Notes: generated from the letters alone by a model not told the origin. DNA of 64,000 nucleotides from a virus (IMGVR_UViG_3300014205_000002:144265-208264), one strand, 5' to 3'. Positions 25,984 through 31,294 are shown, counted from the first letter of the stretch. Numbers and translations are program-made.

Positions 25984-27134
25984 GCCGGCACCTGGGCGAA
26001 ATGGGCCTCGATCGCGTCCGGTAGCATCAATGGGTCAAGCACACCCAGATACTGCATGATCAGCGCGGTGGACGAGCTGAGGGCGATCGCCTGCTCCAGC
26101 TGGCGTTGATTGACGAAGCCCTGGCTCCAGGCGACCATGGCCCGGGCGCTGGCCTGCGGCCCGGTGTAGGGATTGGCCTCCTGGGTCAGGCCTGCCACGG
26201 CGGCCTCCGCACCCTGGCGGTGAGCCTGTTCAACGCCCACGACCTGCCGGAGATCCTCGCTGCTCGTGAACAGGCGCTCGCGCACCTTGGCGTAGAGCAC
26301 CCGGTAGCGCGAGAGGCAGCGCATGATTCGCTCGAAGTTGGTGCCGGCCTGTTCAGTCTCGGGCTCTCCCCGCAGCGCGTCGGCGATCAGGGCGTCGCGA
26401 TACGACAAGGCATCCTTCGCCATGCCGGCCTCGGACACGGCGGCGGCCTCGCGGCTGCGGGCGATTGCAAGTTCACCGGTACTCGCGAGGGCCTCAGCGC
26501 GCACCAGCTCCGTGCTGGCCTTGAGCGTCTCGATCGCCTTGGTTAGCTGTTCGCTCTCGGCCAGTAGCTCGCAGACGCGCTGCTCGGCAGACTCCGCGCG
26601 CTCCTCTTGGGTGCGGATCTGGTCGATATACTGCGCCTCAATGGGCGTGGCTCCGCCGGTGCCGTAGGCCAGGAAGTTGTCGAGGAAAGCGTTGTAGCCA
26701 TCGCAGCTGCGGCCATTGAGTGCTTCTTCGACCATTTCCTGGCGGTCAAGTGGGAGGAGTGCTCCGTTGTAGAGGCCGTTGAGCAGGCATTCATAGTGGA
26801 GCTTGCGCAGCACGGGCTTGAGGATGGCGCTGCCCGATAGCTCGGCGCGCAGGAGCTGGTTCTCCTTGGCGAGTTGGCCGTAGCTGAGTTCGTAGTTGCG
26901 TATCGTGTCGAGCGCGCCAGCGAGGTAGCGACCAGCCTCTTCGGAACCGGCCGCGAGCTGCTTAATCAGCGCCGTGAGGTCCTGGCGGGTGAGGTGTTTG
27001 AGGTTCTCTCCCTGGTTCGTGTGGCGCTGCACCAACTCGGGGATGCCGGCGATCGCCGCCTGGACCACCATGAGCGGGCTGGTGAAGTGGCCGTTGGTCA
27101 CAACGACGGGGATGTCGGGGGTAGATTCACTCAT
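25980..27134 (-). CDS. Coiled-coil protein with a C-terminal RMF-like motif
   Basis: AHRQGAEAAVAG...NPY...AWSQGF. Confidence 0.6.
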   Translation of the reverse strand: MSESTPDIPVVVTNGHFTSPLMVVQAAIAGIPELVQRHTNQGENLKHLTRQDLTALIKQLAAGSEEAGRYLAGALDTIRNYELSYGQLAKENQLLRAELSGSAILKPVLRKLHYECLLNGLYNGALLPLDRQEMVEEALNGRSCDGYNAFLDNFLAYGTGGATPIEAQYIDQIRTQEERAESAEQRVCELLAESEQLTKAIETLKASTELVRAEALASTGELAIARSREAAAVSEAGMAKDALSYRDALIADALRGEPETEQAGTNFERIMRCLSRYRVLYAKVRERLFTSSEDLRQVVGVEQAHRQGAEAAVAGLTQEANPYTGPQASARAMVAWSQGFVNQRQLEQAIALSSSTALIMQYLGVLDPLMLPDAIEAHFAQVPA

Positions 27135-27997
27135 GAGGCTTGTAGCTCCTTGCGTTGCTTGCGCAGCATGGACTGGTAGGTGAGCACGGAACTGACGTCC
27201 GCAAAGCCCAGCTGCTGCTTGATGTCGTGGGGGTCCTGATTGGCTTCGAGGAGTTCGATGATGCGGCTCGCGCGCATCACCTGGGGGGTCAACTGGGGCG
27301 TCTGTGCGCCCGCGGCGTTGCGTACGATCAGCCAGACGACATGCCGGCTGATCATGCCGCCCTTCATACCGTAGAACATGAGGTCCTTGCGCGAGGCCGA
27401 CTTCGGGACGGCGCGCACCTGGGCGTAGGCTACATAGGCCTCTTGGGCGATCGCGTCCAGCACCAGGAGGTCGTCGCGCTCCGCACTGACGAACAGCAAG
27501 GAGCCGGACCGAAAGAGGCTCTCGCCGTCGCCGGCGGCGTTGAAGCGCATGGCCTGAATTTCACCGGGCCGTATGCCCAGCCGGAACAACTCCATGATGA
27601 AGCGCCGCGAGGTGCCGAGGTGGTAGCGCGCGCAGGCCTCGGTGATCGCATCAGGGGGGTAGAAGGCGCTGTCCTTGCCGTCTGGACTCGGCCACTCCAC
27701 GTCATGCAGCAGCGCCGTGTCCAGTTGGCCCCGCTCGATGTGGTGGCGCAGGAAGCCGCGCAGGGCGGCCCCCTTGCGTGTGGCGGTGTTCGGCCTGGCC
27801 CGGCGGCGGGTGTGGGTCATGTAAGCCGCCAGAATCTGGCTGGAGAGGTCGCCGAGATCCCGTGCGTCCGGGCAGTGCTCTGCGAGGTACTGAGTGAAGT
27901 CGGCGAGGTCCCCGCTGTAGGCGCTCGTGGTCGCGACCGCCTTGTTCTGCTCGATCAGCTCGTTGACGTAGGCCTGGGTGGACTGAACGATGTTCAC
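27131..27997 (-). CDS. XerC/D-like tyrosine recombinase with a degenerate catalytic pocket
   Basis: TTSAYSGDLADFTQYL, ALRGFLRH, GIRPGE, LTPQVMRAS, IKQQLGFAD, LTY. GTG start overlaps the upstream stop. Confidence 0.8.
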   Translation of the reverse strand: MNIVQSTQAYVNELIEQNKAVATTSAYSGDLADFTQYLAEHCPDARDLGDLSSQILAAYMTHTRRRARPNTATRKGAALRGFLRHHIERGQLDTALLHDVEWPSPDGKDSAFYPPDAITEACARYHLGTSRRFIMELFRLGIRPGEIQAMRFNAAGDGESLFRSGSLLFVSAERDDLLVLDAIAQEAYVAYAQVRAVPKSASRKDLMFYGMKGGMISRHVVWLIVRNAAGAQTPQLTPQVMRASRIIELLEANQDPHDIKQQLGFADVSSVLTYQSMLRKQRKELQAS

Positions 27998-28347
27998 AGC
28001 TTTTTTCCTCGCTCCTGGCCGATCTTGACGAGCACGTCGAAGCGGCGGCAAGCGTCCTCGAACATGGGCCCGACGACGGCGCATTCGGTGTCCTGCATGT
28101 ACAGGTTTGCGATCATGGCCTTCTGGCCCGTGGTGACGCCGTCACCGACCCAGAGCGCCCATTCCTGGTTGAAGTTGTCCTTGGTCATGGCCCTGAGCGC
28201 GTCCTCGGAGAACGACTCGATGTCGCGATCCTCTTCGGTCTCGATCGCCGCCGGGATGTCCCAGATGGGGAAGGGAACAAGAGAGCCCTTCTTCTCCTTC
28301 TTCTCCGCCGGCGCTTTCGGCTTACTGGCGACGGATCGTCTTGCCAT
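27994..28347 (-). CDS. Hypothetical protein
   Basis: 117 aa, coupled. Confidence 0.7.
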   Translation of the reverse strand: MARRSVASKPKAPAEKKEKKGSLVPFPIWDIPAAIETEEDRDIESFSEDALRAMTKDNFNQEWALWVGDGVTTGQKAMIANLYMQDTECAVVGPMFEDACRRFDVLVKIGQERGKKL

Positions 28348-28586: not shown

Positions 28587-28609
28587 CTTACGAAGATTAG
28601 TCGGGCCGC

Positions 28610-28834
28610 CTAGCGGCTACCCAGGACCCGCAGGACTCGACGCTCGGTTTGGCGATCCAGCGTTCCCGCAAAGAGCCGCCGCATCTCGTCTTCCATTCGC
28701 GCCGCTGTGGATTGTTGGTCCGACCAACGGGGGGATTCAAGTATCCCATCTACGGGGGAGAAAGGCAACGTTACGTCTACCGAAACATTGGTCGGACCAT
28801 CGTCAGAGCCGACGAAAAACGCATCACCTTTCAC
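28610..28834 (-). CDS. Small hypothetical protein
   Basis: GTG start, SD GGAGGAG. Confidence 0.55.
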   Translation of the reverse strand: MKGDAFFVGSDDGPTNVSVDVTLPFSPVDGILESPRWSDQQSTAARMEDEMRRLFAGTLDRQTERRVLRVLGSR

Positions 28835-29109
28835 TGAAACTCCTCCGTAAGATCGGGCTGGTCAAAGCTCTCGGCGGGGCGATCGCTGGGGGTGTCCGCG
28901 AGTATGACGTAGAGCGGGTCCTGGGCCCAGTTGTTTATCTCGGCTTCGGTGAAGTCATTGAGGACATCAGGCCTGTGTCCGGTAGTGAAGAGGATCGTAG
29001 CGGGCTCGACCTTGATCACTGGTGGGTTGACCACCGCCATCTCCGCAGGATTGAGGACGGTCTTGTTCGGGCCCTGCCTGCCCATGAGTTGGCGCATGAA
29101 GTCAGTCAT
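28831..29109 (-). CDS. Small protein ending SDRPAESFDQPDLTEEFQ
   Basis: Start MTDFMR overlaps the upstream stop. Carries the shared C-terminal tag. Confidence 0.65.
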   Translation of the reverse strand: MTDFMRQLMGRQGPNKTVLNPAEMAVVNPPVIKVEPATILFTTGHRPDVLNDFTEAEINNWAQDPLYVILADTPSDRPAESFDQPDLTEEFQ

Positions 29110-29323
29110 CGGCGAGATCCGGATAGGCGGCAACGAGATGGCGAACGTGCGGCCGCCGCGGCGGCTCGACCGCGGCCATGCGTACCGAGAGGTCTTGAAC
29201 GGCCTCGACGACGTTTGTGCCGGCTGGGTAGTATCCGGTGCTGTCGTCGATCTGGAGCCTGTCGGGGTTCAAGGGGTTCTCCGTTACCCATACGGTCTCA
29301 GGGCGACCATTGTCCCCGAGCAT
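29102..29323 (-). CDS. Small protein ending YPDLADD
   Basis: TAATG coupling with the upstream ORF. Confidence 0.6.
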   Translation of the reverse strand: MLGDNGRPETVWVTENPLNPDRLQIDDSTGYYPAGTNVVEAVQDLSVRMAAVEPPRRPHVRHLVAAYPDLADD

Positions 29324-29499
29324 TACAGGAACGTCTCGGTCATGTCGGGGGCGGCGAAGCTGTCGGCGGGGCGATCGCTGGGCCCAGGTCCAACCACGAA
29401 GCGCTGGGAGATGCGGGTGACGGGCATGTCGAGATGCATATTGATGGTGACCTTCTCGACCTGGTCGTCCTGGGCGTCGGTCCAGCTGAATTCAGCCAC
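29323..29499 (-). CDS. 58-aa ORF not in the ORF track, ending SDRPADSFAAPDMTETFL
   Basis: GTG start with SD GAGGAG. Hand-translated MAEFSWTDAQDDQVEKVTINMHLDMPVTRISQRFVVG... Confidence 0.65.
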   Translation of the reverse strand: MAEFSWTDAQDDQVEKVTINMHLDMPVTRISQRFVVGPGPSDRPADSFAAPDMTETFL

Positions 29500-29656
29500 A
29501 AGTCATCTCCTCGGTCAGGTCGGGGGTGGTGAAGCTCGCGGGCGGGCGCGGGCTTTTGGGAGGGAACAGCCGGTCCATCCCTTGCAGGTCATTCATCAAG
29601 TCTTCCGCGGCCTTGATCTGAGCGGACGTGACGGGGCGTTCGCGATTCGGGGTCAT
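29492..29656 (-). CDS. 54-aa protein ending RPPASFTTPDLTEEMTCG
   Basis: TGATG coupling, SD AAGGAG. Confidence 0.65.
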   Translation of the reverse strand: MTPNRERPVTSAQIKAAEDLMNDLQGMDRLFPPKSPRPPASFTTPDLTEEMTCG

Positions 29657-30198
29657 CAACGGGGCGCTCCTTGAGGCTGAGGGGCTTCTGAATCCGCGAA
29701 AGCTTGCGCCATGACCAGGCACCAGGGTACCTCCTGCATGTGGTCGGTGGCGGCCTTGATCAGCGCGGCACCGACGGCATGGTTCATGGCGTAGGGGCTG
29801 AACCCATTGATGACGGCACGCTTGCCGGCCAGGGTGAGCTTGGCATGACAGGTCGGCCCGCTCTGTGCGGTGTGGATGTCGGCGACCAGCTCCGCCATGC
29901 CCGCCTCGCGCACGACGTCCCAGAAGCCTTCGGAACAGGCTGCGTCGTACTCGATGGCCGGCATCTGGGCCTTGCACCACTTGGCGATCGCGTCGACCCG
30001 TACATCATAGACGACTGACCAGCCTTCTGGCCGCTTGATCTCGTTGATGACGCGCCCATGCAGACCTTTCATCACCTCGGCGTGCATCAGGTCGCGGGCC
30101 CGCACCCGCTTCGAGCGGCCCGTCGCGACGAGCTGCACGTAGCCGTGGGCCTTCACGCTCGCGACCACCGCCATCCGGAGGAGATCGGCGGGCGTCAT
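29656..30198 (-). CDS. Hypothetical protein
   Basis: 180 aa, coupled. Confidence 0.65.
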   Translation of the reverse strand: MTPADLLRMAVVASVKAHGYVQLVATGRSKRVRARDLMHAEVMKGLHGRVINEIKRPEGWSVVYDVRVDAIAKWCKAQMPAIEYDAACSEGFWDVVREAGMAELVADIHTAQSGPTCHAKLTLAGKRAVINGFSPYAMNHAVGAALIKAATDHMQEVPWCLVMAQAFADSEAPQPQGAPR

Positions 30199-30593
30199 AT
30201 CACCATCACCGTGAGGCCTGCCCAGGCGGGCGGGGGCTCGGCGCGGAAGCTCTCGGTCAGGTCGGGCACACTCTGGGCGATCGCCTGCGTGATCGACGCA
30301 CCCTTGGCGGCCGGTTGGCCGATCTTCGCGCCCTGGGCGAGCAGCGTCTCGCCCGTCATCGGCGGCGTCGTGAAGGACACGGCATGGCCGAGATCCTTCC
30401 AGTCCACGTCCTTGCGCAGGATCAGGCCATTGGCGAAGACCATCAGGGGGGTGAACTCAGGCGGGAGCGCGAATACGGACGTCTTGTCGTCACCCTCGCC
30501 GAGCGGAACCGGGCCGAACTGATCCAGCTTCAAGCGATTCAGTGGGATTGAGTCTTCGGCGATGCGCGTCCCCAGCACCATGGGCGTGATCAT
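30195..30593 (-). CDS. Small protein with a tail-protein-like beta domain and a PDLTESF motif
   Basis: VFANGLILRKDVDWKDLGHAVSFTTPPMTGETL and VPDLTESF. Confidence 0.6.
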   Translation of the reverse strand: MITPMVLGTRIAEDSIPLNRLKLDQFGPVPLGEGDDKTSVFALPPEFTPLMVFANGLILRKDVDWKDLGHAVSFTTPPMTGETLLAQGAKIGQPAAKGASITQAIAQSVPDLTESFRAEPPPAWAGLTVMVI

Positions 30594-31294
30594 ATCGCGA
30601 GCCCATGCTTGAGCGGGAACTGCTGGGCCACACCGAGACAGTGATAGCAGAGGTAGCTCGCCGGGTCCTCATAGCTGAGGACTTGTGCGAGGTGAGGCTT
30701 ACAGAGGGCGTCGCCGGCCTTGAGCTGGCGCTTGCGGGCGTCGCCGACCCACCTTACATTCGTGTCGACCGTAAGGTGGCCGACGCCGACCCTGGTGACT
30801 GCGAGGCTTACGCCGACAGGCAGAGCCGGCACAAGGTCGCGCAGCTTCTCCTTGCCTGCGAAGTCTTTGAGGCGATTCATCATCGCCTGGGTGTGCAGGG
30901 TGACGGCCCGTTGGGTGTCGAGGTAGCGAATGTGGGCCTCGGCGTAGGCCAAAAGCGTGGGGTAAGGCTTGGGGGCGTCGGTGGTTTTTCCGTTCGCGTA
31001 GAAGTAGCTGTGGGGGTTCTTGACGGCATCGTGAACGCCGAGCCAGTGTGCCTTCGCCTGGTCGTATGAGAGATTGTTCAGCATACTGCGAAAGCCGTTG
31101 GTCTTGGGTTTCGGCAGGCTATTAGCACGCTTGAGATAGACACCAAGCGTCTTGCCGCTGGCGTCGCAGTGGCTAGCGCTCGCGTAGCCGGTCTGCACGA
31201 GGACCTCCCCAGGACCGAATGAGCGCTTGGGGATCGCTTCGACCCAGGTAGGCGAGCTTGAGGGCGCAGAGCTGGCGAGTGACGTGGTTGGCAT
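30590..31294 (-). CDS. Hypothetical protein
   Basis: 234 aa, SD GAGGAGG, C-terminal LC..CYHC. Confidence 0.65.
   Translation of the reverse strand: MPTTSLASSAPSSSPTWVEAIPKRSFGPGEVLVQTGYASASHCDASGKTLGVYLKRANSLPKPKTNGFRSMLNNLSYDQAKAHWLGVHDAVKNPHSYFYANGKTTDAPKPYPTLLAYAEAHIRYLDTQRAVTLHTQAMMNRLKDFAGKEKLRDLVPALPVGVSLAVTRVGVGHLTVDTNVRWVGDARKRQLKAGDALCKPHLAQVLSYEDPASYLCYHCLGVAQQFPLKHGLAI

Follow-up and report, generated by a model that had tools for sequence, protein, structure and literature searches.

A Conserved C-Terminal Peptide, Possibly a Docking Tail, on a Cluster of Phage Mini-Proteins

Introduction

The DNA studied here is a stretch of 64,000 nucleotides (IMGVR_UViG_3300014205_000002:144265-208264), the final 64 kb of the 208,264-bp record of an uncultured phage; we refer to the whole stretch as the window and count positions from its first letter. 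On its minus strand lies a cluster of small, co-translated genes whose products end in, or contain, copies of the same peptide. Our tentative reading, to which we give a probability of about 0.45, is that this tail is a docking module on a family of five acidic mini-proteins (54–132 residues) that arose in tandem. The observation on which the reading is built is firm: the motif is neither a chance match nor a nucleic-acid artefact. The most likely function of the tail is that of a common docking handle.

The Tail Motif and Its Copies

The three full copies, at the ends of p54, p58 and p92, share the 17-residue consensus S-x-R-P-x-x-S-F-x-x-P-D-[L/M]-T-E-x-[F/M]. The tails carry a charge of -2 to -5.5, are rich in Pro, Ser and Thr, and conserve hydrophobic residues at positions F8, L/M13 and F/M17. 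Two further proteins carry the motif in part, p132 as PDLTESF and p73 as a degenerate ending, YPDLADD. The coordinates and peptides given for these proteins in the first-pass annotation, including the fifth ending, YPDLADD, are all confirmed, and the codons that it quoted are correct. An internal segment of p132, SFTTPPMTGETL, also resembles the tag, agreeing with SFTTPDLTEE of p54 at 7/12 positions. The positions of all copies are collected in Table 1.

The motif is not random, and within this genome it is confined to the cluster. Translated in six frames, the complete genome gives 416,524 residues, in which PD[LM]TE occurs four times against 0.20 expected, each time in a coding frame of this 1.4-kb stretch; the longer pattern RP..SF..PD[LM]TE is found three times against 4e-6 expected. 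The pattern and profile search across the full genome that had been put forward as a check on the shared tag thus returned PD[LM]TE from the cluster only. Even the loose pattern PD[LMIV][TSA][ED] has just six matches in the window, five of which are in the cluster. A hidden Markov model (HMM) built from the three full tails scores these copies at 34–38 bits, as against 9.6 bits for the best open reading frame (ORF) outside the cluster. In p132, it makes two weak partial matches, to PDLTESF and to SFTTPPMTGETL. A comparison of 291 candidate ORFs by their C-terminal 24 residues placed p58 and p92 well ahead as the strongest pair (E 1e-9, the next being 0.004), and tail sharing beyond the tagged family was not found in this genome.

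Table 1. Copies of the tag, genes of the cluster and nearby features, in positions of the window.
Feature	Positions	Strand	Remarks
Full tag c1, SDRPAESFDQPDLTEEF	28837-28887	-	End of p92; then Q, stop
Full tag c2, SDRPADSFAAPDMTETF	29329-29379	-	End of p58; then L, stop
Full tag c3, SPRPPASFTTPDLTEEM	29504-29554	-	End of p54; then TCG, stop
Partial tag c4, PDLTESF	30246-30266	-	16 residues before the end of p132
Degenerate tag c5, YPDLADD	29105-29125	-	Very C-terminus of p73
Internal tag-like segment, SFTTPPMTGETL	30342-30377	-	In p132; HMM 7.5 bits, weak alone
p234	30590-31294	-	Untagged, basic, isoelectric point (pI) 9.5; first of the coupled chain
p132	30195-30593	-	132 residues, acidic, pI 4.8; GC3 (GC content at codon position 3) 0.86
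p180	29656-30198	-	Untagged basic orphan within the cluster, pI 8.4; coupled to both neighbours
p54	29492-29656	-	54 residues
p58	29323-29499	-	58 residues, GTG start
p73	29102-29323	-	73 residues
p92	28831-29109	-	92 residues; last gene of the coupled chain
Probable regulatory gap 3' of the cluster	28600-28830	.	Two TGGTCNGACCA palindromes; p74 call doubtful
Integrase-family (tyrosine) recombinase	27131-28084	-	About 750 bp downstream of the cluster, same strand

Descent of the Copies and Selection on the Peptide

Likeness at the DNA level is limited to about 58 nt, with identities of 76% and 60%, and it ends sharply. Within this repeat, invariant residues alternate with positions that vary at codon positions 1 and 2. 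All six Ser codons of the three full copies are AGC, a codon whose usage in the genome is 0.36. Since AGY and TCN codons need more than one synonymous step to interconvert, the six AGC codons argue for descent rather than convergence, and, judged by their codons, the tag copies are homologous and come from one ancestor.

The synonymous positions tell how the copies have been kept. Copies c1 and c2 have four synonymous changes in 12 identical residues, where 6.3 would be expected if codons were chosen at random from this genome's usage over the 17-residue tag; c1 and c3 have five in 11, against 6.0. Leu, for example, is encoded by CTT, CTG and CTC in the various tags. Because the synonymous sites in the comparisons of c1 with c2 and c3 are near saturation while 11 or 12 of the 17 residues hold, it is the peptide that is under selection, and the earlier suggestion that conservation is at the protein level is borne out. 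The comparisons show that DNA duplication spread the repeat and that peptide-level selection has kept it.

The exact 20-mer common to c1 and c2 deserves separate comment. Within it lies GCGATCGC, a word that codes for S-D-R and uses GAT, the minor codon for Asp. The local DNA identity of the two copies is due to a genome-wide word bias: this palindrome occurs 120 times in the 208 kb, against seven expected, with sites in the window at, for example, 28879, 29371, 29984 and 30277. We take GCGATCGC to be the HIP1 word, typical of cyanobacteria. Copy c3 is without it and keeps S-x-R-P all the same, so the HIP1-like word explains only the identical S-D-R codons of c1 and c2. Over the whole genome, GGCGATCGCC is likewise in excess (43 against 0.7 expected), as is GATC (1998 against 691). 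The abundance of GCGATCGC may point to the host, or else to a methylation system, although the only sequencing run with the DNA is a landfill metagenome.

Could the repeat act as nucleic acid instead, as a ribosome-binding or coupling element, as an mRNA structure, or as a cassette boundary of the attC or dif kind? The repeats form a 58-nt direct repeat family at the 3' ends of genes, a tyrosine recombinase gene is nearby, c1 and c2 share the exact 20-mer with GCGATCGC, and GAGGAG is present within c1 and c3. However, the conservation follows codons, with synonymous changes at the residues that are kept; the repeat lies inside ORFs; the distances to the next start range from overlap to 48 nt; and GCGATCGC is found genome-wide and is missing from c3. 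We regard a nucleic-acid role as very improbable. A Shine-Dalgarno element in particular was rejected, as GAGGAG is in just two of four copies, the count given in the first-pass annotation, and stands at no fixed distance from the next start; neither an embedded Shine-Dalgarno sequence nor a plain DNA repeat, the two explanations named there as potentially fatal to the claim, accounts for the motif. At the four junctions, predicted RNA folds have stabilities no greater than those of shuffled sequences (z -1.0 to +0.6).

The comparison with integrons is instructive. The integron attC site, or '59-base element', is a cassette boundary found next to a tyrosine recombinase. Like attC, the present repeat is about 58 nt long, recurs at the 3' ends of small genes in a row and has a tyrosine recombinase in its neighbourhood. 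Unlike attC, it is part of the ORFs and is conserved with codon periodicity, an inverted-repeat hairpin is absent, and the recombinase is downstream on the same strand. Single-stranded DNA folds of both strands of c1–c3 gave no attC-like hairpin and no shared structure (z +0.6 to -2.0).

Gene Layout and Genome Context

The phage record is complete, with direct terminal repeats, a GC content of 64% and a CheckV completeness of 100%. The landfill metagenome is the only sequencing run with this DNA; it is a DNA run and probably the source, and the sequencing-run search listed no RNA run containing it. The tagged cluster sits within a long minus-strand block that also encodes a class II ribonucleotide reductase, ThyX, a C5 methyltransferase, a DUF1643 protein and the integrase-family recombinase. 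The best match of the window's NrdJ among phage databases is in 'Microcystis phage MaAM05' (48% identity; MW495066.1 48518-74311), where the neighbours of NrdJ are annotated as cellular pgi, acnA, icd, rpoD, ycf3 and rny, which is unusual for a phage record.

In the direction of transcription, the gene order is p234, p132, p180, p54, p58, p73 and p92. Stop and start overlap by 1–8 nt at all six junctions from p234 to p92, the junction sequences being, in order, ATGA, ATGA, TGATG, GTG..TGA, TAATG and ATGACTGA. The GC3 maximum switches frame exactly at the boundaries of the small genes, so that every tagged frame is supported. The codon signature of the small ORFs (GC1 0.58-0.73, GC2 0.39-0.53, GC3 0.76-0.86) brackets that of the large genes (0.64/0.45/0.83).

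On the opposite strand, an ORF of 247 codons (28931-29674, +) extends over four of the tagged genes, and a simple GC3 filter lets it through. Because its codon-position pattern is mirrored and flips from segment to segment, this ORF is spurious, a shadow of the minus-strand genes. It does not explain the conservation of the tag.

The span first proposed for the cluster, 28610-30593, stands as far as the tagged ORFs are concerned and is doubtful at its downstream end. There, the ORF p74 (28610-28834) has a GC3 of 0.60 and a poor codon signature. Of the five exact copies of the palindrome TGGTCNGACCA in the window, where 0.06 would be expected by chance, two are inside p74 (28716-28726 and 28789-28799, 73 nt apart). 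On the ORF map, two of the three other copies are intergenic. Given the low GC3, the two palindromes and the mostly intergenic position of the others, the coupled chain probably ends at p92; p74 is doubtful as a gene, and 28600-28830 is probably a regulatory gap.

The Protein Bodies

Freed of their tails, the bodies are 34–105 residues long, and no two are similar beyond chance: in 21 Smith-Waterman pairs with 300 shuffles each, one reached p 0.017, as chance predicts. Searches of Pfam and PHROGs gave no match for 10 cluster proteins and, for 10 neighbours, nothing informative except one DUF1643. The carriers are acidic, with pI values of 4.2-4.8, whereas the neighbours p180 and p234 are basic (8.4 and 9.5). 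An Atlas search with p180 returned nothing.

Some indication of structure is available for p132. Its body looks like the small beta-sandwich of fibre or adaptor proteins, of the DUF4183 or T7 tail-fibre N-terminus type, to judge from its Atlas neighbours, which are viral fibre/adaptor clusters (feature score 0.91, structure TM 0.5-0.55) in which only some members carry DUF4183 or Phage_T7_tail (PF13799, PF03906). Against Pfam, p132 has no match at E 0.1; a single-sequence AlphaFold2 model has a pLDDT of 35 and is unusable. The protein weakly matches a fibre-like protein of the phage itself (E 0.015). The gene for this fibre-like body nevertheless has nucleotide-metabolism genes for neighbours and stands far away from the tail module. 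More broadly, when the cluster proteins are compared with structural proteins of the same phage, all matches are weak, with E at least 0.012 in a small database, and none is significant after 11 queries. The idea that the mini-proteins are fragments or decoys of structural proteins was rejected for want of significant similarity.

Proposed Function of the Tail

The tail, as we picture it, would be a self-contained C-terminal module of 17 residues that serves as a flexible docking peptide. The upstream half would be a proline-kinked extended arm with a Phe anchor. The P-D pair would start a one-turn amphipathic helix, on one face of which the L/M and F/M residues would lie one helical turn apart. 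Through such a tail, proteins with different bodies would all be tethered at a single binding site on a partner common to them. Candidates for the partner are a host protein and basic proteins of the phage, for instance p180 or p234. That the motif is unique to the cluster, that the reading frames are supported and that acidic carriers stand next to basic p180 and p234 all favour this reading. Moreover, bodies that are unrelated can offer no packing surface in common, which makes an autonomous tail likelier.

The cluster might, on the other hand, consist of ordinary tandem paralogues, the tail being a structural or self-association element rather than a handle for a separate partner; examples would be a piece for homo- or hetero-oligomerisation, or the terminal strand or helix of a DUF4183-like fold that has decayed. 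The carriers are all adjacent and their copies homologous by descent, and the domains of this phage's tail-fibre-like proteins end in a comparable way. The chief argument is the tag-like SFTTPPMTGETL inside the fibre-type, beta-sandwich-like body of p132; this internal match, however, is weak when taken alone, at 7.5 bits. The bodies also differ in length, with about 37 to 105 residues ahead of the tag, and show no similarity, and the abundance of Pro, Asp and Glu in the tail is not what one expects of a core strand. We consider this explanation unlikely, though by no means negligible.

There are two further proposals. The first is a processing or turnover signal, either a cleavage site for a phage protease or a degron that would shorten the life of these proteins. 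T4-type prohead proteases cut at L/I-x-E sites, which the L/M-T-E of the tags resembles. This tripeptide is invariant in four copies, and the phage encodes a DUF2201 VWA-metallopeptidase. Yet cleavage after E would remove only 2–5 residues in three of the carriers, the cluster lies among nucleotide-metabolism genes rather than head genes, and a three-residue site leaves the conservation of S-x-R-P-x-x-S-F unexplained; such a signal is improbable. In the second proposal, the tail would be a portable address label, read by one dedicated phage or host receptor that handles the mini-proteins as a group for recruitment, delivery or timed destruction. We find this rather unlikely; if true, it would amount to a tag-and-reader system without described relatives. 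The DUF2201 protein is a possible peptide reader, although nothing links it to the tails. This protein of 576 residues, with DUF2201_N metallopeptidase and DUF2201 VWA-like parts, is encoded at genome positions 100990-102720 (L017 4991-6721), and its gene is followed by paralogues of about 500 residues with helical repeats and by a Rad52-like gene.

The first-pass annotation had gone further and described a modular system of 'variable bait + constant tag'. A selected peptide on dissimilar bodies is indeed what is found; a general system is not, there being five adjacent carriers in one genome. With carriers so few, all adjacent and in a single genome, a small family born in tandem fits better than a general bait-and-tag arrangement. 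Nor was a common partner found of the kind suggested for the tag (protease adaptor, scaffold or packaging factor).

Several points weigh against a docking tail. No partner was found, and the candidate p180 is without support. The motif of p132 is not terminal, and SFTTPPMTGETL in that protein may be an ordinary strand of its fold, in which case the tail is possibly derived from a structural element. The carriers number only three full and two partial, all next to one another. Copies c2 and c3 have one synonymous difference against 5.0 expected; part of their identity may reflect recent copying or preferred codons rather than long-term constraint. Lastly, the tagged family is seen once, in a single genome.

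Comparison with Known Tail Systems

A precedent for a docking tail shared by different proteins comes from phage T4, in which gp33, gp55 and gp43 carry short hydrophobic-acidic C-terminal epitopes, interchangeable with one another, that dock on the one gp45 clamp (PMC2988020). Like these epitopes, the tail described here is a short C-terminal stretch, hydrophobic as well as acidic, that follows a variable linker, with F, L/M and F/M as anchors. Unlike them, it is borne by orphan genes in one tandem array, and its sequence is unrelated. Searches of the complete phage genome with PF02916 and PF02768 found no gene for a gp45-type or beta clamp. The tail motif is also absent from the DNA polymerase and from other replisome and transcription proteins of the phage, being limited to the five ORFs of the cluster. 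The cluster is not a member of the T4 clamp-epitope system.

In phage T7, gp2.5 and gp4 dock on the T7 DNA polymerase by means of acidic C-terminal tails. The resemblance is in having an acidic tail with an aromatic anchor on different proteins. The differences are several: the Phe or Met is not terminal, Q, L or TCG coming after it; p132 has the motif at an internal site; neither single-stranded DNA-binding proteins nor helicases are among the carriers; and the Pro-kinked arm upstream is conserved as well.

A third comparison is with graspetides, whose core peptides include TTxxxxEE in plesiocin and TxRxPSDxDE in microviridin (bioRxiv 10.1101/2021.03.09.434688). Here, too, small proteins have C-terminal peptides rich in Ser/Thr and Asp/Glu, and p54 literally matches TTxxxxEE. 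In contrast to graspetides, the ring residues are not kept (DQ..EE in c1, AA..ET in c2), and there is neither an ATP-grasp ligase nor a shared leader. This bears on the idea that the tail is another kind of cis-acting peptide, either the core of a graspetide-like RiPP (a peptide made on the ribosome and modified after translation) or a ribosome-arrest peptide. The composition of these short C-terminal peptides and the T-T-x-x-x-x-E-E of p54 would suit a RiPP, and 17 residues is a length similar to that of known arrest motifs. On the RiPP side, however, searches with PF13535 and PF08443 found no ATP-grasp gene in the complete genome, TT..EE is present in p54 only, no leader is conserved, and p132 is probably a folded-domain protein. 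As to arrest, the next starts overlap the stops and leave no room for an mRNA switch controlled by stalling. We think the chance that either applies very slight.

Distribution and Relatives

The absence of a described family, as claimed at the outset, holds in searches of Pfam, PHROGs, protein and PDB collections and the literature. Searches of 5.8 billion proteins with p92, p180 and the recombinase recovered just the query in each case. A profile of four tails run against 1.84 billion representative proteins recovered its own four sequences (57–60 bits) and two low-complexity matches, and a profile search of the PDB gave nothing below E 0.3. Literature searches with the motif strings found nothing relevant.

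No close relative of the phage itself was found. A DNA search of GenBank phages gave no match, and scans of IMG/VR with p180, the recombinase, a 1469-residue protein and the portal gave no relatives. The nearest cultured relatives of the portal, at only 26–28% identity, are in Salmonella phage Arash and in Vibrio phages.

Degenerate DNA patterns for the tag were also run against large collections. In IMG/VR, a long pattern had 0 matches and a shorter one three, against about 14 expected on a rough estimate that assumes uniform base composition. Metagenome contigs gave 13 matches; the chance figure of about 13 is itself a rough estimate made for a collection of similar size, and none of the matches was C-terminal or multi-copy. 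In the two collections together, no match was both C-terminal and multi-copy. The pattern SF..PDLTE.(x)F does occur close to a C-terminus in two unrelated phages of IMG/VR. One of the proteins is a DnaC-like ATPase that ends in SFRKPDLTEVTF (L001 5863-6444); the other, encoded beside a PolA gene, is a zinc-ribbon protein of 52 residues with SFYDPDLTETF (L003 4955-5113). Both were rejected as relatives of the tag: the number of matches is within chance, and we attribute them to coincidence.

Implications

The present instance is small and limited to one genome, and it is a lead rather than a system. Its value is of two kinds. Small orphan genes of phages are mostly unreadable, and a peptide under selection in mini-proteins that are otherwise dissimilar is good evidence that these ORFs of 54–92 residues encode real proteins. 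The 17-residue tail, in turn, is a ready-made bait for finding the target of the mini-proteins. To our knowledge, the literature holds few examples of shared tails beyond those of the T4 clamp and the T7 polymerase. If shared tails were to serve as address labels, they would represent a general organising principle of the early proteomes of phages.

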